This document shows, one piece after another, positions 1 to 20,000 of a stretch of DNA of 20,000 bases (its first letter is position 1; each line of letters starts with the position of its first letter). Source of the DNA: Folioceros fuciformis (lineage: Eukaryota); contig JBNGIO010006303.1 of NCBI GenBank assembly GCA_049999805.1, forward strand, positions 79,775 through 99,774, given 5' to 3'. The notes below the pieces were generated by a model. That model was not told the DNA's origin and searched no databases. It saw nothing but the letters and a program-made list of their open reading frames with translations. The position numbers were made by a program, and so were the translations under genes.

Positions 1-168
1 TACTTACCATAGAGGCCACTAAAGCTGCCATCATGCTTGATGTTGTTCAAAAAATCGCATTTGCCAAGGCTTTTTGTAGCACAATCAAAAACCATTTCCG
101 GAAAAAGGCCACCAGGCCGGATAATCTTGCTGACGTGATGGGCCTTTGTGTAGGTCTTCAAAAACCTC

Positions 169-365
169 GAAAAATCCTTACCCATGACCCTATTGCAAGG
201 GCTTGTACTTGCAAGTCTTTCTTGTCGCACTTCCTCCTGCCGCCCAACCTAAGGAGTTGATAACGAAAAATCCTTACCCATGACCCTATTGCAAGGGCTT
301 GTACTTGCAAGTCTTTCTTGTCGCACTTCCTCCTGCCGCCCAACCCAACCTAAGGAGTTGATAAC
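169..365. repeat. Tandem duplication of a 96-bp unit (169-264, 265-365); copy 2 has an extra CCAAC
   Basis: GAAAAATCCTTACCCATGACCC...CCAACCTAAGGAGTTGATAAC occurs twice back to back, identical except for a 5-bp slippage insertion. Confidence 0.95.
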
Positions 366-593
366 AATGTGCTCACTTGATGGTGGTTTGTGACAACCAC
401 ATCCACTAAATATCTAAGCAAAGGATGATTTTTATAAGCACTCATCTAAGTATTAATCTAATCAAAGAATGCTTAATCATAACGTTCTCATAAATGTTGT
501 TACAATGGTGTGTCATGATGTTCTTATAAATGTGTATCACAACATTCAAGCTATTTATCTATCTTATCTATTTAGAATCCAATCGACATAAGT

Positions 594-689
594 CAAGAAT
601 CCTTGAGCTTCTGGACTCCCAAGGCATATTGCAGGAAGGACTCGCTGGTAGCAAGAATCCCTGAGCTTCCGCACTCCTAAGGCATAATG
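594..689. repeat. Diverged ~38-bp direct repeat (594-631, 652-689)
   Basis: CAAGAATCCTTGAGCTTCTGGACTCCCAAGGCATATTG versus CAAGAATCCCTGAGCTTCCGCACTCCTAAGGCATAATG. Confidence 0.8.
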
Positions 690-789
690 TTGGACTTATT
701 GGTAGGCCTGAAATGGCTTATCACATGATTCCATGTGGAAATCTCCTCAAGCATTAGAAAGATAGCAAGTTATGAGCAGCTTTGGATAT

Positions 790-1560
790 CAACTTATGGG
801 CAGCTTCCCGCTAATGTGTCGGAGGAACAACACTTTGTCGAAGGAACAACACTTGGCCCTCGAAGAGCCCAACTCAGCGGCTGAGATGGTCGAAGTGTCG
901 AAGGGGATATTGAGAAACGAATCACTAAGTTATGAAAGTATCCTACTTGAATTCCTTTTATGAGGGTGGGATTTTGTGCCACTATTTTTCAAGAAGGTAG
1001 TTGGTATGATTTGGAAAGAGCATAGCATGGGTAAATAGGTCAGCCTAGGTCTCATCTCCCTTCTACCTAAGTAGAATGCTGGTCTCTCAATTTCCAATTA
1101 GAGGCTATCACTTTGCCAAGGTTCTAATAAATAGACTCAAGCCCTTCCTTGATGAGTGGATGGAGGCAGAATAGCAGGGGTTCATCTAAGACAAGTGCAT
1201 TCTTGATAATCTTTTGCTGTTGCGTAAAGCCAAGTACAACACTTTGGCCCAGCAGAAGCCGGTTGTCTTCATCTCCTTAGACTTCTATAAGGCTAATGAC
1301 TCCATCGAATGGCATTTCATGTGGTCATGTCTTTGACGTTTTGGGCTGGCAATAACTTTTGTAGATGGATAGCAATCCTCTGCAAAGAGGCAGACGCAAT
1401 GGTATCCATCAACAGATCCTTCATTCAACGGTTTGACATCATGTGCCAAACCGTGAACAAGTGATTCACTTGTTCGGTCCATCAAGGATATCTCTTGGCA
1501 CCCTTTTTTGTTTATCATGGTGATTGACCTTGTTCTTCGAGGATTAATGTGAATGGCATG
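790..1560 (+). mobile_element. Degenerate L1-clade non-LTR retrotransposon, ORF2 reverse transcriptase N-terminal half (stops and frameshifts)
   Basis: Manual translation across stops and frameshifts gives LEEP..AAEM...EFLL*GWDFV, GLISLLPK, AKVLINRLKPFLDEWMEAE*QGFI*DKCILDN, FISLDFYKANDSIEWHFM (LDF at 1277, cf. LDFxKAFDRVxW) and SVHQGYLLAPFLF (QG at 1483, cf. RQGxPLSPxLF). The YADD motif was not seen. Confidence 0.9.
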
Positions 1561-1803
1561 CCCAAAGAGATCATTTTGAGGGGAGTAATTAGATAGCAGT
1601 CGTATACGGCGGGAGGACCTCGCTTTCCACCAAGGTGGTAGCATGGCGTATCTGGGGAAAAATCTCCATGTTATCTAGGTCACCATGGCTAAGCATCTTG
1701 CTTATGATTCATTTGAAGCGGTGCATCGAGAATATTCGGTGCACTCAACAAACGAATTAACACTTGGTTCCACACGTCATTTGAGAAAAAAGTAAGCACA
1801 CAA

Positions 1804-1903
1804 NNNNNNNNNNNNNNNNNNNNNNNNNNNNNNNNNNNNNNNNNNNNNNNNNNNNNNNNNNNNNNNNNNNNNNNNNNNNNNNNNNNNNNNNNNNNNNNNN
1901 NNN
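1804..1903. other. Assembly gap (~100 N)
   Basis: Run of N. Confidence 0.99.
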
Positions 1904-2099
1904 GTCAATTGGACACTTTACTAACTAGGATTTTTTTATTTATGTGCAAGAAGTAAAGAATGTACAAGGCCTCAAAATTTTACTTGAAGCTTTTTAGGCT
2001 TTCATCTTAGAGGTCCATATGTGGAAAGGACTTGAGAATGAGCAATGTGCTCTGGAAGACTCGGTTATGGAGGTTGGATTGCAAAAGTTCATGGTCCCA

Positions 2100-2820
2100 C
2101 ACACTGAAGCTGTTATGCAATATCAAGTGGTGACGAGGGATGTGCTAGATATGCGGAGTTTCCTACATCCGTGTCTATATATGACATTGATCATGGATGT
2201 CCCCAAAGCATTTCAGAAAGGACCATATGACAATCATATGGAATAAGCACATCTATTCACTATATACCAAGCTTTCAATGATATGACAATGTGAGAAGAC
2301 ATACGATTCATTATTATGCATGCATGGTGTGGAGGATATTCAAGTAGTGCGGGACTACATAAGAAAGTGGTGCACAACCGGAGGCCTTGTTTCCTTCATT
2401 TGGGATAAGACCAACATGCATAATGATTTGGAGGGTTTTGATATAGTGGAGTACATGACAACCAAATGGGGTGTGTCGTCAAGCAGCACGAAGACGACGA
2501 AAGTTGCTATGCAACCCATTATATTGCAAGGATCCTTCAACAATAGTCGTGTCATCATATCCCATGACATTGTTGTGAAGAAATTGCTATATATATCTCT
2601 TGACAAGCTGGTTGTAAGTCCTTAACAAGGTCCACTTGGTTTTATGATGAAGCTAATCGAAACCTTCTCGAAGGAGGAAGATTGGATTGTTGATGCATGT
2701 TCAAGTAGTGGGTCCACAACATTGGTAGCATTGTTATGCGGGGGCAACTCCATTGCCATTGATGTAGGCAAGTGGTGTGCCGAGTTTATATTGTAGCGCA
2801 TTCATGAATATGAAGTTTTT
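2100..2820 (+). pseudogene. Degenerate beta-class N4-cytosine/N6-adenine DNA methyltransferase (N6_N4_Mtase-like)
   Basis: Joined reading: YQVVTRDVLDMRSFL..TLIMDVPK (DPPY-like position 2196-2207) ... RFIIMH ... SFIWDKTN (2401) ... IVEYM ... VSP*QGPLGFMMKLIETFSKEEDWIVDACSSSGSTTLVALLCGGNSIAIDVGKWCAEFIL*RI (2614-2802). The C-terminal part parallels HPTQKPxxLxxxLIxxxSxxGDxVLDPFxGSGTTxxAAxxxGRxxIGIE. Lesions: TAA 2244, TGA 2292, 4-bp ATGC duplication at 2316-2323, TAA 2623, TAG 2794. Confidence 0.8.
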
Positions 2821-3015
2821 GCCAGATGTGGGTGAGGAGCTAAGACACAAGCCGCATCGTTGGGGGACTTCCTAATTCTAGGCCATAGAATTGATCCTAT
2901 TGGAAAAAGACGTTTATGTCGCTCATATTAAGCCTTTGGGAGTTAGTAAGTTGAAGGAGGAGACAGATGGTGTTAGTGCAAGCAACGATGTAGAGCAAAA
3001 AGAATCACTCGTACA

Positions 3016-3099
3016 ACCCACCTCTGAGACTACTTGTTAGGGTACCCACCTCTGAGACTACTTGTTAGGGTACCCACCTCTGAGACTACTTGTTAGGGT
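3016..3099. repeat. 28-bp tandem repeat, three exact copies
   Basis: ACCCACCTCTGAGACTACTTGTTAGGGT at 3016, 3044 and 3072. Confidence 0.97.
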
Positions 3100-3339
3100 C
3101 ATATCACAGCAAGCGACGCCATGAAAGACATGTATGTTTTTGAGGAGAATGACATGTAGCAGCTCCAAGGCATCGATGTAGTCCTAGATAACATATTGGC
3201 CCCTTGCTCTATAAAGTCACAATGTCCATAGTAGCTTTTGTCTGTTTGCTATTTTTTTGTGGGCTGTTAAGTTTAATGCAAAAGCCTTAGTACTATCCTA
3301 CACACTTTGGACAAGAGAAAAAAACAGAATTCACCATTA

Positions 3340-4646
3340 ATTGTTTCAAACAATGGTATGAATATTTCCTCATTGCGCAAAAACAAAGGAACAAGGCTAT
3401 CCATCGTAAAGGAAAATGGACAAAAAGGTTGGAGAAGGGTATTTGCCTATTTTGACCCTTTGTAGGAAGTCATGTTGGTGGAAAGCGGGAATTGCTCATA
3501 TAAGACTATTTCTCCATAGGGGTTATTAGAGAAGCTAGGAAAAAAGAAGGGGTGGTTTGTGGTCGGATCCTATGACCTATCACAGTTCTCTACAAAACTG
3601 CTGTGTAGGCAGGTTGATGTCGCATACAAGGGGAATAGGGTAGTAAGCAACCTTCTCTTGACCACACTCCAATAAGGCGCTAGTTTCATCTAGTGGAAAA
3701 TTGCGAGTTGGTTTTGTGACCTAACCTTTTTAGATCGTCTTGATGCCATGTGGGTAATTAGGGGTGCCCGTGGTCCTTCTTCAATTTTCTATCGATAGAT
3801 CTACCACTTGCTAGTGCGTGCACAGAAAATCATCAGGCATAAGCCAATGGCTCCGAAGTTGAGATTGCCCCTACAACGCGAGAAACAGCCCTTAAACTCG
3901 TATGGCCAACTATAGGTATTCCTCCTAAGGTGAGGGTAATAGTTTGGTGCTTTTTCCAAGCTTGCTTGCCAAATGTAGACTGTTGGGATGAGTTGCTAGT
4001 CAATGCAGGGAGGAATGGCGTAGAATGTACAATGTTGGAGCCTCGAACAAAAGCCAATATTCGATCTTCCGTTGCAATTTTGCACAAGAGATTTTTGATG
4101 GAGGTGGATAGGTGGTCATGGAGAATCCTTGCCGCAACCAATCTCATGGTCATGGAACAAACTACACTCTTTGGTCTAGATAAGGCTTCAGGCCAACCAT
4201 TAATCCAGAGTCAATGGTGGGGCATGGTTTTGACCTCCTCACTCTTTTGCATCTCGAGTCATTGGACTTCATTCAGTGGATTATGGGGTTTATGTGAACA
4301 GCATAAGAACAGTCACTCCCTCAAAAATTTAACTCAAAAATTTAAGTAGAAAAACTGGAGGTTAGTAAGCTTTCTTGGATAAAAATTTCAGAGGAAAGAC
4401 CGGAAGTTAGTGAGCTTTCTTGGGCCTAGGAATGACATCAATGGAATCACACATGTCCATGGAGAAGGTATTTGAGACACAAAGAGAGGCAGTGTGTGTA
4501 TCATTCCTTAGATCTAGAAGCTTGTTTTGTGTTTTGGCTCCTTAACTCAAGGGCTTGTGTCTCGCTCACCTTTGTAGGCTTGAAGCAGCTTCTAGCTTAC
4601 TGAAATGTGAATTCAATCTAAATTTCTTTCTTTGCAAAAAAAAAAA
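3340..4646 (+). mobile_element. Degenerate L1-type LINE 3' portion (post-RT region, zf-RVT-like segment, 3' A-tail)
   Basis: KRLEKG....PFVG (cf. KRLxxW...LxxxGR), KRRGGL (cf. PKxxGGLG), LDAMWVIR, LVWPTIGIPPKVRVIVWCFFQACLP (cf. WxxxxPPKVxxFxWxxxxxxLP). Ends in TTCTTTCTTTGC followed by A11 (4636-4646). Confidence 0.7.
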
Positions 4647-4759
4647 TCATTTCTAGAATAAGTGCTCTCTACCTTTTTCACATGCTTAATCATGAGCTAT
4701 CTGGATATCTTCGTCTTCTATTCTTGCTCGAATCACGTTACTTTCTTCCGCTCAACTTG

Positions 4760-4778
4760 TTTATTTATTTATTTATTT
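4760..4778. repeat. Short (TTTA)n microsatellite in an AT-rich spacer
   Basis: TTTATTTATTTATTTATTT seen directly. Confidence 0.7.
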
Positions 4779-5436
4779 ACTATTTTAATATAAAATTTTA
4801 TATAGTTGATTGTGGATGTTTATTATCACCTACTTAGATAAGTGAGAAATAAAGAAAGAAGGAACCCGTCCACTCAAGGGAAATAACGCTTAGCAGGACA
4901 CCGAAAACGCAAGACATCAACTAACCCGCCTCCGAATTATGTGATGCCGGACCTGTTGTCACGCCATGAAGAGATGAATGAAAGCTTCTAACTTTTAAAG
5001 ATACGTACTAATACGAGAGCTGGGGAAGTTGCTGTTGCTACCTGTCCCGTTAGGCGCTCAGGGACTGGGCTTTGGGCTTCACAGTGGCTTTCTTTCCGTC
5101 GTTCTACACTCGACTCCTACTGCATGCTAGCCCTTCGCACAACAATGCGTCCTTGCTGGGAGCTGCCGCCATCGCTGGTCTGAACAGCTCTGTGTGGTGC
5201 GTCCCCGCAGGCAGCGCTCCCTGGTCGAGCCATCTGCACGCTTGGGGGTCGCTACCTGCACTCCGGCGGATGAGGTGTTCCAGGGTTTCCTGTCGCCTTG
5301 TGATGCTCTCGGAGAACGCAGGTGATTCTGGGTAAATCTCATGTCCAGGAACGCGGTTGGACTGGGAAACTAGATGGTCGCAAGGACAGGAGCCTAATTA
5401 CAGACCAAGGAAGGGTCATTCCAGTCGCTCGCCAAG

Positions 5437-8400
5437 ATGGCGAGCCTGGCGATCACCATGATTTTAGAGAAGGTGAGGGGCGCGTCGCATCTTGTCCTAC
5501 AGGGTTGGAATTGTTAGGTCTAGCGAAATTCCTTTTATCTGAGGGCTTCTGTCTAGCTGGATGGAAGCGTGCTCCCACATGGCAGCTAGGAGGTGGCTGA
5601 TTTTGGGTACGGTTGATTCGGTCTGTTGATGTCATGTGCGGTCTAATGACGTCTCGACCTTGGTGTCGGTGCAGATCGCATCAAAGGACAAGGATTTTAG
5701 ATATATGGCCACCTCCGACCTCTTGCAAGAATTGCAAAAGGAAACCTTTAAGCTGGATGCCGAGACGGAGAGGAAAATCTCTCAGATTGTGTTGCAGCAG
5801 CTTGATGATCCATCTGGAGATATCTCGGGCCTTGCAGTGAAATGGTTAGCACCTCTGATTCCTTCGATTGGATTTCGGATGTGGAAAACATTGTATTGCA
5901 ATTTGGCGGGACTGGTAGGTGCCCCAGCATGTGTTTGGTTTTATAGTCTCTGTTGCCTCGTGAAACAGCTTGGGTCCCTTAGTGAAGAAAGTGAGCGAGG
6001 GTAGAGTGGTGGACATCGTTGAGCAATTGTGTCAGCGACTTACTGGCAAAGAGCAACAGCGGGACATCGCGAGCATTGGTCTCAAGTCTGTGGTTGCTGT
6101 GATATCTAGTNNNNNNNNNNNNNNNNNNNNNNNNNNNNNNNNNNNNNNNNNNNNNNNNNNNNNNNNNNNNNNNNNNNNNNNNNNNNNNNNNNNNNNNNNN
6201 NNNNNNNNNNAGTGGACCAGTAGCCCAGGCTGTCGTCGCAATTCTCACCCCAAAGCTCATCAAAGGCATCAGTTCCGCGGTGGGTTCTACTTTCCTGATT
6301 TCCAGGGTTTTGTTCTGTTGTGTGGAACTTCAAAAGGTGGAACCAATCTACCGCCGTTTAGTGCATAAGATTTGGCTTGCAAATTCAATTGGGTGTTCTC
6401 CTTCAGGACACTAGTGTTGAGGTAAAGAGCGAGTGCCTCGATATTCTGAGTGACGTACTACTCAAGTTTGGGGGCCTCATGGTCTCGGATCATGAGAAGT
6501 TGCTCAGTGCGCTGCTTGCCCAACTGAATCTGCAAAGGGCAGGACTTCGGAAACGTGCAATTCAATGCCTTGGTAAGCAGCTCGTATGTTTTGGTTGAGC
6601 CTGAATGCTTTCCGGCTTGGTCTCACCTGGGTTGCTATCATCTCTGCAGCTGCTCTGGCTTCAAGCATGTCAGATGATCTTTTGGGTAGAGCTACGGTAT
6701 GTGTTGTTCAGCTGCTAAAGAACAAGGAGGCAAAAGCAGACTTGACACGAACCAATATCCAAATGATTGGAGCATTCTGGTACAGCCGTTTTGTGCAAAG
6801 TTTCAGTAGAGGAAGGGGTGAACTGTAGAATACGATTTTGAGTTCACATGAGTAGCTAAGTTCGTGTGTCATTCTGCTCCTCTTTTTTATGCAGCCGTGC
6901 AGTTGGCTATAGATTTGGTCCACACCTGAGTGAGGTGGTGCCGCTTCTAATTAGCTACTGCGAAAATGCATCTGAGAATGACGATGAACTATGTGAGAAC
7001 AGCTTACAGGTGCAGTCTTAATTGAGCTGAGATTTTAGTCTTGCTTCAGTTGTGATGTATTTAAAAGCTTGAATAGGCTGCGGTTATGGGTGTGCCCCTT
7101 CTATCTCTTGTCTGTCCCTGCTAAATTACAATATCCAGGTGTTCATTTTGTTATTTCGTCCTTTCTCTGCACTGTAGGCTTTGGAAAGTTTTGTTCTCCG
7201 TTGCCCTAGGGACGTCTTCGAGCATACCACCACAATCTTGGACCTTGCCCTGGACTATCTCAGTTATGATCCCAATTTCACTGATGATATGGAAGAGGAT
7301 GAAGATGAGGATATGGAAGCTGATGACGAGGAGGATGAGTGAGCACCAGACTTTGTAGTTTGATTCGTAGGACTAATATTTGTGCGTGCCAGGCATCAAG
7401 TCTCCTCAGATTTGTCCTGCCAAAATTGCAGAGAAAGTGGGGATGAGTACAGTGATGATGAGGATGTGAGCTGGAAAGTTCGACGGGCTGCAGCGAAATG
7501 CCTGTCAGCTGTTATCTCTTCCAGACCAGAAATGCTTGCTCAACTTTACAGCAAGGTTTGTTCTGTGTCATGGCTTAGAGTCTTAACACAGCAAAGATGT
7601 GTTATTGTCAGGTCCTCAGAATGATGTATCATGTGCTCCTTTCCCAACCTTGCAGGCTTGTCCAAGATTGATAGAGAGATTCAGAGAAAGAGAAGAGAAT
7701 GTCAAGGTGCATGAGGTTATTAATTGATTTCGGGGGATGGGGACTGGTATGTCTCTGTTTTCTTACAACATTTTATGGTACGTGCAGATTGATGTTTTTC
7801 AGACCTTCATTGATCTATTAAAGCAGACTGCCAATGTTACAAAAAATACAGGAGATCTGAAATCCTCGAGGTAGCATACTCTGTTCAGATAGTGGGGGAG
7901 CTCTTGTTTCTGGTCAAGAGTGCTTTGTGCAGTACGTGCATGTTCATTTATGCTGACACCCCACTGCTGGTGTAAATTGTAAACGTGCAGCTACATCTTG
8001 TACCTGCTGCAACAGGAGGTTCCTAAAGTAGTGAAGACTCTGAACAAACAGCTGCGTGAAAAATCTATCAAGACGAAGGTGATGATAGATGTTGCGTCCT
8101 TTCCTAGCTTTACAGGTTTTTTGATGCTGGAATGGCATTGAAGTGTGGACTTCGTTGTAGGTGGGAGCTTTTTCAGTTTTAAAAGAACTGGTGATAGTTC
8201 TACCCAACTGCTTAGCTGAGCATATTTCGTCATTGGTGCCAGGAATTGGGAAGGCGCTCAATGTAAGTGCAGTGGCTGGTATCAGTAGCAGGTGGCAGTT
8301 GCTGGTAGATACATGGGCCATGATGTAATCTATTGTACAATCTTTATTACTCTCTGCAGGACAAAGCTTCCAACTCTAACTTAAAAATTGAAGCTTTGAC

Positions 8401-18718: not shown

Positions 18719-19692
18719 GCAACTTCACTATGTCGAGTGACGATAGGATGTGGTCCCACGTCAATGTGCTGTTAAGTAGAATGCACAGCCTCCTGGTAGA
18801 TTTTTCGACCTGTCCAGGCACTTGGGGGGAAATGGAACATGTGAGAGAGCGTCCGCAGAGAAATGTCTTGTGCCTGTTATGGCAGAGATTTTGTCGTGCC
18901 TATCCTGTTGTAGGTTTGCTTTGGTGTAGGCTGTTGAATTTGCAGGGGTTGAATGCTGGATCTATGAAGCAGATGTGAATCAAATACGGTGGACGGGTGT
19001 TTGGTTCACCAGCAGACAGTTTCACTATGTCGGGAGACGGTGTGGTGTGAAACAGATGTATATCGGGCTCGTCCACCGTTGGGCAGACAGCATTACCTTT
19101 CTATCCTGGTTGGAAACTGCCACTACGCTAGTTGGCTATCACCCGAACAGCTCATCAATCCATGCGAATCCTATGGTGTGGAGTCGGGGACGCTCCCTAG
19201 GTTCATGTTATGGTCGAAGAAACAGTTGACCTTCCACTTCGCTAGTCACTCCTGCATTTGGACCCAGTCTTAAGGACACCTGAACATGTTCGGCAGCAAT
19301 TATGAATGTGCAGTTAGGTTGGTGGATTTTCATGGATATCCTGCCATCTGCTTCATCATCTTGTGATTGCTGTGCTTTGTATCTTGTAACTGCCGCGCTT
19401 GTCCGTGGATGCGCTTGTTTCGGATGCTGTACGGTTTTGCAGACGTTGCTTTACTGTCCTTGCTCACGGAGACCGGTTCCTCGACGTTCAGTTGCTATCC
19501 TTGCGAGGGGCCGGTGGGGCTAAACAACACCCCCTAAGGCTCTGCTCTTGTCAGACGGAAAGAACATGAAACCGAGGGTCATGGGCTGCGTTGCAGAGGC
19601 CGCCGACGATACTCTCGTGAAGGTTCCACAAACACCGCTCCAGTAACGCCCCCTTCCGTACGCAGGGTAAAAAGGAAGCAACGGCCTCGAAG

Positions 19693-20000
19693 CTCCACTT
19701 ATAAATCACTCACTCCTTACAAATCACTCACTCCTTCTCACACCTCGAATCTCGTGATTCACTTCAAAGAACTCCATTTACAAATCACTCGCTCCTTCTC
19801 ATACCTCGAATCTCGTCACTCCACTTACAAATCACTCGCTCATACCTCGAATCTCGTCACTCCACTTACAAATCACTCGCTCCTTCTCATACCTCGAATC
19901 TCGTCACTCCACTTACAAATCACTCGCTCATACCTCGAATCTCGTCACTCCACTTACAAATCACTCGCTCCTTCTCATACCTCGAATCTCGTCACTCCAC
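19693..20000. repeat. Minisatellite with alternating 47-bp and 41-bp units (88-bp higher-order repeat), running off the window end
   Basis: CACTCCACTTACAAATCACTCGCTC[CTTCTC]ATACCTCGAATCTCGT. Long units at 19770, 19858, 19946; short units at 19817, 19905; degenerate copies at 19693-19769. Confidence 0.95.

Follow-up and report, generated by a model that had tools for sequence, protein, structure and literature searches.

The window analysed here is the whole 20,000-nt stretch of a Folioceros fuciformis contig (assembly GCA_049999805.1, contig JBNGIO010006303.1, positions 79,775 to 99,774 of the forward strand). Near its 5′ end lies a pseudogene of a beta-class (permuted) amino-DNA-methyltransferase, flanked by transposable element (TE) fragments (Table 1). 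An earlier note, made from the sequence alone, had joined two open reading frame (ORF) fragments and an untracked frame at this position past four stops and a 4-bp duplication, and all of these lesions are present (stops at 2244, 2292, 2623 and 2794). The frame of 1998 keeps its similarity to the protein family described below until ~2318, beyond the first stop, and a doubling of ATGC at 2316-2323 then shifts the reading to the frame of 2287. The last of the four stops falls inside the final conserved helix of the S-adenosylmethionine (SAM)-binding half, and a further TGA follows at 2833.

Table 1 Coordinates of the methyltransferase pseudogene, of other features of the window and of features in environmental loci that hold relatives
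Sequence	Feature	Position	Strand	Evidence or remark
Window	Methyltransferase pseudogene, whole	1998-2832	+	Frames read directly, all frames listed
Window	N-terminal part with degenerate motif IV M-D-V-P-K (2193-2207)	1998..2246	+	Ended by stop TAA 2244-2246
Window	Same-frame continuation with stop TGA 2292-2294 and 4-bp duplication	2247..2323	+	Read-through; one paralogous contig without the duplication
Window	Middle part, frame of 2287: W-x-K-T-N strand (2395-2415), variable stretch like a target recognition domain, S-P-stop-Q-G-P	2320..2625	+	Stop TAA 2623-2625
Window	SAM-binding half, with stop TAG 2794-2796	2626..2832	+	PF01555 match, M.RsrI alignment, relatives' alignment
Window	Segment recurring as diverged copies (~80-90% alike); holds the pseudogene and ~600 bases of 3′ flank	1905..3440	.
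Window	Tandem repeat, three perfect copies of a 28-nt unit	3016..3099	.	3 window matches, 0 expected by chance
Window	Reverse transcriptase fragment	1073..1352	+	RVT_1 E 2.4e-7; adjacent TE debris, distinct from the methyltransferase
Window	N run, 100 nt, between reverse transcriptase fragment and relic	1804-1903
L001	Spacer motif array	205-604, 1746-2021, 3220-3463		Palindrome, 12 matches
L002	Spacer motif array	78-388, 1245-1821, 3009-3414, 4653-4860		16-mer, 20 matches
L003	DUF7869 ORF	1942-3081	-	Pfam, convergent to methyltransferase
L006	DUF7869 ORF	963-2981	-	Pfam E 8.9e-50, convergent to methyltransferase

Every beta-class motif named in that note, and their order, is found in the pseudogene. 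T-R-D-V (2133-2144) is followed by the M-D-V-P-K of motif IV, which aligns with the D-L-P-R-G / D-I-P-Y-G column of the relatives (alignment A1), and then by F-I-W-D-K-T-N (2395-2415) and V-E-Y (2446-2454). S-P-stop-Q-G-P, within 2611-2634, corresponds to S/N-P-Y-Q-K-P in the family. The SAM-binding half contains motif I, as F-S-K-E-E-D-W-I-V-D-A-C-S-S-S-G-S-T-T (2665-2721), and G-G-N-S-I-A-I-D-V (2740-2766). Motif IV is therefore N-terminal to motif I, the permuted order. The SAM loop itself is altered, reading A-C-S-S-S-G where the relatives have G-C-S-G-S-G, with the loss of the first motif I glycine. Because the pseudogene combines four stops and a frameshift with D-V-P-K at motif IV and the missing glycine, this copy is inert as a protein. 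The note's extent of 2100-2820 was slightly too short, as similarity to relatives spans ~2004 to ~2830.

Several comparisons support the assignment. The membership in Pfam PF01555 (N6_N4_Mtase) that the earlier note expected was borne out by a match at 2626-2796 (E 2.8e-6), which covers profile positions 167-213 of 221 and scores 27.9 bits against a curated cut-off of 26.7. A 169-residue single-frame read-through was compared by phmmer with 1.84 billion protein representatives, recovering 19 proteins at E <= 1e-3, three of them at E <= 1e-10 and the best at 2.3e-15; a word-indexed protein search with the same read-through against targets of 92-296 aa gave no match. The phmmer relatives also align, over their N-terminal half and including the column of the catalytic motif, with the upstream fragment, which lies in the other frame. 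We then built a two-frame read-through with an X at each break, and aligned it with P0002, an intact relative: 75 of 233 positions are identical and the local score is 271, compared with 32.5 +/- 4.8 (maximum 54) for 200 shuffles. When 49 family proteins were searched against the window by tblastn, the sole significant region was 2034-2898. PF01555 was also found in all eight relatives scanned and in two Ginkgo gene models (30-69 bits). Among sequences in the PDB the best match of the relic is M.RsrI, which is weak alone (E 0.95).

With a profile of 30 family rows, 12 distinct sequences in the PDB were recovered, every one a DNA amino-methyltransferase, among them TTHA0409, M.RsrI, rotifer N4CMT, CcrM, M.BceJIV, DpnA/M1.HpyAVI, M.MboIIA and Mbo45V. 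The AlphaFold model of P0002 has a mean predicted local distance difference test (pLDDT) score of 73.2 and a predicted template modelling (pTM) score of 0.76, with 142 residues at or above 90 and low-confidence parts at 1-35, 199-226 and 317-323. Its best Foldseek match is CcrM (1.2e-11), followed by M.MboIIA, M1.HpyAVI, N4CMT (1.3e-10), M.BceJIV, M.RsrI and M.PvuII (1e-8); METTL3 is further down the list (~3e-6). Since the model matches permuted DNA amino-methyltransferases, the assignment to the beta, permuted class is right. Profile, relatives and fold thus agree with the earlier note that a streptophyte genome here contains a degraded amino-methyltransferase of the beta class (PF01555). 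Its caution about the substrate also holds, as the target base is not legible from the sequence.

The relatives form a eukaryotic clade of ~50 unnamed proteins and two Ginkgo gene models. The unnamed members come from Logan, ENA, JGI and SRC and are annotated at most as 'hypothetical protein'. A profile of ten relatives (A2), with which 8000 candidates were scored, gave 200 proteins at E <= 1e-3, of which 120 were examined. The first 43 rows have E <= 2.8e-33, and a gap then separates them from ordinary PF01555 proteins, which score 6.7e-15 or weaker. The sole named members among the matches listed are the Ginkgo biloba models from EukProt, Gb_17912 (E 1.4e-48) and Gb_10123 (E 1.7e-35). These two models, P0050 (Gb_17912) and P0059 (Gb_10123), are identical at the N-terminus but not in the middle, and seem to be degenerate in part: motif IV of P0050 reads D-I-S-Q-G and its motif I Asp is replaced by Tyr, and P0059 is without the N-terminal half of the methyltransferase. 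Both are probably annotation merges over element copies.

A quick IQ-TREE phylogeny of 100 rows comprised the 29 (of 49) family proteins of at least 240 aa, 70 of 77 other matches (200-480 aa) and the window read-through; one of the 70, P0080, proved to be a family fragment. Family and window lie on one side of a branch with full support (SH-like approximate likelihood ratio test, SH-aLRT, 100). The family itself divides into three. The Ginkgo pair makes up one group; a large one is marked by D-[IV]-P-Y-G, N-P-Y-Q-K-P and D-L-C-C-G-T-G, and a small one by D-L-P-R-G, S-P-Y-Q-K-P and D-G-C-S-G-S-G. It is to the small group that the window belongs (support 99), with an end branch of great length (2.24), which is what a pseudogene would be expected to show.

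It is very unlikely that the relic came directly and recently from a bacterium or phage, or that it is bacterial contamination of the assembly. Although by far the most members of the domain family are prokaryotic or viral, the nearest relatives of the relic are eukaryotic, Ginkgo included, and bacterial-type proteins appear only from E 6.7e-15, compared with <= 1e-33 for family members. The copy is also heavily decayed, as its end branch of 2.24 indicates, and its GC content of 0.42 is like that of the surrounding TE debris. N-free sequence runs from the relic into a host gene for CAND1, and one contig of a probable source run (X2, below) spans 3343-6100. Host genes on the same sequence are CAND1/TIP120 (PF08623 E 1.4e-11, with a spliced RNA-type contig showing GT..AG joints at 5470/5673 and 5843/5968), a Trp/Tyr permease, NOA36 and SNRNP40. 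The SNRNP40 exon is 84% identical to Cocos, 83% to Musa, 80% to Araucaria, 78% to Nymphaea and 74% to Selaginella, with no named match at or above 90%. Because of this 74-84% identity to streptophyte proteins, the identification of the host as a plant (streptophyte) genome stands.

Motif IV differs between the groups in a way that bears on activity. Among the 49 family proteins, 24 have D-[IV]-P-Y-G, three have D-L-P-R-G and one has D-I-S-Q-G; the remaining 21 are mostly fragments or fell outside the pattern used. The consensus of catalytic motif IV is (D/N/S)-P-P-(Y/F/W), from which both the D-V-P-K of the window and the D-L-P-R of its subclade depart, the latter in all three subclade members that cover the motif. 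Because Arg or Lys replaces the base-stacking aromatic residue, enzymatic activity of this subclade appears doubtful from its sequences, and its members may not be active writers. The earlier note had raised the prospect of intact writers of N4-methylcytosine (4mC) or N6-methyladenine (6mA) elsewhere in the genome, which for the clade of the window is thus doubtful. The subclade contains stand-alone intact ORFs, P0002 (323 aa), P0003 (446 aa) and P0007 (288 aa). The relatives' ORFs stand alone and start with Met, and Pfam scans of the relatives found no domains besides methyltransferase-type families.

A scan of metagenome contigs gave 23 loci with relatives, six of which (L001-L006; one metagenome, 2.2-5 kb, GC 0.46-0.50) hold uninterrupted methyltransferase ORFs of the D-[IV]-P-Y-G group. 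L001 and L002 contain three co-oriented ORFs, namely ORF1, a conserved ORF2 and the methyltransferase, and ORF2 is directly upstream of the methyltransferase in all five loci that reach upstream. Downstream, a large convergent ORF of the DUF7869 family (E 8.9e-50), or its C-terminal tail, is found in L002, L003, L004 and L006, and we presume that it encodes the transposase of the element. DUF7869 clusters in a protein atlas are eukaryotic, multicopy 'hypothetical proteins', mostly from Streptophyta or Mollusca (a lead only), and 'DUF7869' is not mentioned in any paper within the literature searched. The central part of Ginkgo Gb_10123 can be aligned with ORF2 (33% identity over ~330 residues, many positions being invariant), so that this one gene model holds both ORF2-like and methyltransferase sequence. 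Because of this alignment, the pairing of ORF2 and methyltransferase predates the split of the family groups.

Repeat arrays lie beside these accessory genes. L001 has 12 occurrences of a palindrome and L002 has 20 of a different 16-mer, where fewer than 0.1 occurrences are expected in each. The array motifs, short palindromes specific to each element, are confined to intergenic spacers and differ between two elements whose proteins are 60-68% identical, as expected if the arrays are binding sites that co-evolve with an ORF2 partner resembling the helix-turn-helix (HTH) of ParB. Five environmental methyltransferase ORFs are all open, with pairwise dN of 0.10-0.34. dS is saturated in eight of the ten pairs and ~25 in one more, and the single usable pair gives an omega of 0.12. 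Since the ORFs are open and omega is low in the usable pair, the methyltransferase is under purifying selection in the D-[IV]-P-Y-G group. In a single case, ORF2 of L001, an in-frame TAG (2468-2470) stands where L002 and L004 have Gln, with the rest of the ORF conserved; a recent pseudogene, an error of sequencing or a reassigned stop codon could explain this. The mobile family proposed in the earlier note finds support in these relatives, which sit, with a partner gene, a DUF7869 ORF and repeat arrays, in what look like mobile elements.

The layout of the relatives is of the same kind as that of algal transposon cassettes. As described in the accessible part of a preprint (Petroll et al., bioRxiv 10.1101/2025.02.11.637652), giant Plavaka transposons of red algae (Bostrychia genome; Plavaka/EnSpm) carry the genes PAG1-3, where PAG1 is of unknown function, PAG2 is a PF01555 methylase with a SET domain and PAG3 is ParB-like with a 2-oxoglutarate (2OG) oxygenase. 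Tandem inverted repeats are located beside PAG3, and the cassette also occurs with Zisupton, Mutator and Fanzor elements. The loci here resemble this cassette in bringing together a PF01555 methylase, a gene that is ParB-like there and weakly so here, and a gene of unknown function, in having inverted-repeat arrays alongside the accessory genes and in that most copies are degenerate; the PAG cassette is further described as moving between transposon superfamilies. The hosts differ, being red algae for the PAG cassette and Ginkgo, a land plant, and the streptophyte Folioceros fuciformis here.

A second parallel comes from Ectocarpus, where the transposon Sola1-1_Ec32 encodes a fused ParB-like/methyltransferase protein of 1104 aa that has been proposed to bind and modify its own element (Genome Biol 2025, PMC12477816, in the text available). 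That paper mentions similar proteins in transposons of green and of red algae, citing Iyer, Abhiman and Aravind 2011 for chlorophytes. The Ectocarpus protein is a single fusion, whereas here the two genes are adjacent and are joined just in Gb_10123, perhaps through a merge in the annotation; by superfamily the Ectocarpus transposon is a Sola1, and the elements here carry the DUF7869 ORF. The nearest known analogues of the relic are the ParB-like and methylase accessory genes of algal transposons, in place of the restriction-modification enzymes, DN4MT1 and N4CMT that the earlier note had named. Searches of the literature found no land-plant description of the family, although the supplementary tables of Petroll et al. 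may list green-lineage homologues. Six group-1 clades are listed for eukaryotes, and adenine methyltransferases are said to be few in land plants, in the part consulted of Iyer et al. 2016 (PMC4738411). Going by the papers found, land plants are apparently a new host for a class of transposon accessory genes so far reported only in algae.

A different origin would be a domesticated host methyltransferase, a 4mC or 6mA writer like DN4MT1 or N4CMT, of which the relic would be a decayed and non-mobile duplicate. The intact stand-alone ORFs in the window's own subclade (P0002, P0003 and P0007) fit this idea, as does the window itself, which contains no transposase or partner gene; the gene neighbourhoods seen are those of other subclades. 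The known host enzymes differ from the family. Rotifer N4CMT (PMC8885841; PDB 8s9m/n/o), which shares the fold and class and is among the top structural matches of P0002, has a chromodomain and conserved introns and is stated in the accessible text to be without eukaryotic homologues; its C-terminal chromodomain was absent from Pfam scans of the family, which found methyltransferase-type families alone. Marchantia DN4MT1, compared by its description in the part available of bioRxiv 10.1101/2021.02.12.428880, has T-S-P-P-Y at motif IV, while the family has D-[IV]-P-Y or D-L-P-R and none of the 49 proteins contains S-P-P-Y. No Marchantia-named protein is present among the 120 profile A2 matches listed. 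In contrast to DN4MT1 and N4CMT, the family is multicopy and found in element-like contexts: the sister clades lie in multi-gene elements with repeat arrays, several diverged broken copies exist in one sample, and the relic lies among TE fragments. We therefore consider a domesticated gene unlikely.

An endogenised large DNA virus or episome with a ParB-type gene and a methyltransferase, in place of a cut-and-paste transposon, could also have left such a fragment. In the accessible text of PMC12704722, phage ParB folds are often fused to PF01555, and phage ParB-CTPase/PF01555 fusions and ParB-Tls loci (PMC12704722, PMC4738411) show the same pairing of ParB and beta-class methyltransferase in a mobile genome. 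Language-model features place phage PF01555 clusters nearest to P0002 (a lead only), and the environmental loci are intronless with palindrome-rich spacers. These fusions and loci, however, belong to prokaryotic viruses, and their similarity to the family is distant only. Phage genomes gave 109 matching records, all distant (best E 1e-6; identities of 22.7-32.2% among the 15 matches listed) and no close relative, and 2.9 million viral contigs yielded 24 pattern matches and no relative. No capsid, polymerase or packaging gene was seen in the environmental loci, and the DUF7869 clusters are eukaryotic and multicopy. A viral or episomal source is accordingly rather improbable.

The relic is probably not alone in its genome. 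Two DNA runs of one sample, X1 and X2, contain 99% of the sampled words of the stretch and may be the source of the assembly. Contigs of both were placed on the stretch at 80% likeness, and over 1905-3440 at least three diverged contigs were found besides the window's own (records 1, 2/9 and 3/10); over 2068-2819 one of these differs in 108 places and has 25 gaps. Across 1905-3440 the summed depth of contigs is 16-33 in X1 and 23-49 in X2, which is not a copy number, and 7 and 10, respectively, over the single-copy start of CAND1 (4565-6100). Position 2625 is a C in three X1 contigs and two X2 contigs, restoring TAC for the family-invariant Tyr. One paralogous contig is without the 4-bp duplication, but it has indels of its own, among them an insertion of 1 bp after 2635. 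No intact copy was seen among the diverged contigs of X1 and X2 over 1905-3440. The earlier note had thus correctly anticipated several copies, and its further expectation of intact ones elsewhere found no support in this sample.

Three further observations concern this segment. The 28-nt tandem lies within it and is skipped by the paralogous contigs. No RNA run is among those listed for the relic, and X4, a run guessed to be RNA, covers the CAND1 exons and has no contig on 1905-3864, which says nothing about expression. In run X3 of the same sample, differences from the window over 1905-4585 are almost all C>T (170) and G>A (81); this looks like a bisulfite-type library, and 5-methylcytosine (5mC) data for the locus may exist.

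That the relic lies in TE debris, as the earlier note had said, is confirmed by the flanking fragments, which include a reverse transcriptase (RVT_1) fragment. Because this fragment is ~650 bases upstream on the same strand and a high-copy repeat is located downstream at 3865-4004, we considered whether the methyltransferase was a domain of a neighbouring retroelement, either a long interspersed nuclear element (LINE) with an inserted methyltransferase or a DIRS-type element, the polyprotein of which is known to include a methyltransferase-like domain. The 100-N gap separates the reverse transcriptase fragment from the relic, and the relatives are stand-alone, Met-starting ORFs with non-retroelement genes as neighbours. 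The DIRS1 domain is described in the accessible text of Iyer et al. 2016 (PMC4738411) as PCIF1-derived, of the unpermuted M.TaqI group and part of an RT/RNase H polyprotein with a tyrosine recombinase, unlike the permuted PF01555 domain here. Neither a tyrosine recombinase nor an RNase H, nor anything else besides the reverse transcriptase fragment, came up when 1-1803 and 2797-5003 were scanned with Pfam in six frames. The DIRS-type idea was rejected on these grounds, and a retroelement origin of either type is highly improbable. The region at 3843-4349 was tried separately as the zinc-binding tail of a LINE ORF2, for which Pfam gave no family.

Other repeats in the window were noted in passing. 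The repeat at 3865-4004 reaches a summed depth of 126-175, compared with 7-10 for single-copy sequence, and also occurs in contigs of the presumed RNA run. Upstream of the reverse transcriptase fragment, in TE debris, a 96-nt unit is repeated 1.9 times at 168-345 with 99-100% identity. The last 460 bases (19538-20000) form a repetitive open frame with recurring H-L-Q-I-T-R-S-like units, probably a tandem repeat running off the window.

Taken together, the pseudogene is probably a dead fragment of a mobile-element accessory gene of the eukaryotic beta-class amino-DNA-methyltransferase family. Several points weigh against this interpretation. By tblastn the window contains no remains of ORF1, ORF2 or DUF7869, no inverted repeats, terminal ones included, occur in its positions 1-5200, and the 100-N gap sits just upstream of the relic; because partner, DUF7869 and terminal repeats are all missing, this copy's origin in a mobile element is argued from its relatives. 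The neighbourhood data come from the D-[IV]-P-Y-G subclade and Ginkgo, not from the D-L-P-R-G subclade of the window, and the environmental contigs and Logan proteins have no assigned organism. For ORF2 the HTH_ParB signal is weak (E 8.6e-4, 19.9 bits, below the Pfam cut-off of 22.6), the PDB gave Spo0J alone (E 0.23) and the fold model from a four-row alignment is unusable (mean pLDDT 46.1); in the Ginkgo model DUF6551 is likewise weak (E 0.032). The DUF7869 ORF, whose role as transposase is presumed, gave nothing meaningful against the PDB. Finally, the likeness to PAG2/PAG3 and to the Ectocarpus protein is one of layout, compared by descriptions in the available texts only. PAG2 is described as fused to SET and PAG3 to a 2OG oxygenase, and neither fusion appeared in Pfam scans here (no SET domain in 15 family proteins, no 2OG domain in the ORF2 sequences scanned). 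The gene order, unknown ORF, ParB-like gene and methylase, also differs from that described for the PAG cassette.

A model for the ancestral element follows the algal precedent, as self-marking has been put forward for algal transposons in the published texts available. The element would use its DNA-binding partner to find its own repeat arrays, and the methyltransferase would mark the element's own DNA with 6mA or 4mC (Table 1 gives the arrays in L001 and L002). The window copy would be what is left of such an element once it had decayed and become nested among other TE fragments. We tentatively suggest, as a less likely extension, that live land-plant elements with this two-part device exist, in which a ParB-HTH-like protein would occupy element-specific palindrome arrays and the methyltransferase would add 6mA or 4mC to the DNA of its own element, perhaps to escape or steer host silencing; the D-L-P-R subclade could then be a repurposed or regulatory, catalytically altered partner, like METTL14 beside METTL3. 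The feature in the earlier note was real and correctly classed, and what changes is its framing, from a restriction-modification or DN4MT1-like enzyme to a decayed accessory gene of an algal-type transposon.

Both the existence of 6mA and 4mC in land-plant DNA and the identity of their writers are disputed. The relic described here led to a coherent eukaryotic beta-class clade, Ginkgo models included, in which a partner gene is conserved and repeat arrays occur, and this clade supplies concrete candidate proteins for assay. If the extension suggested above is true, land plants would have in live elements of this family a genuine source of DNA methylation other than 5mC.

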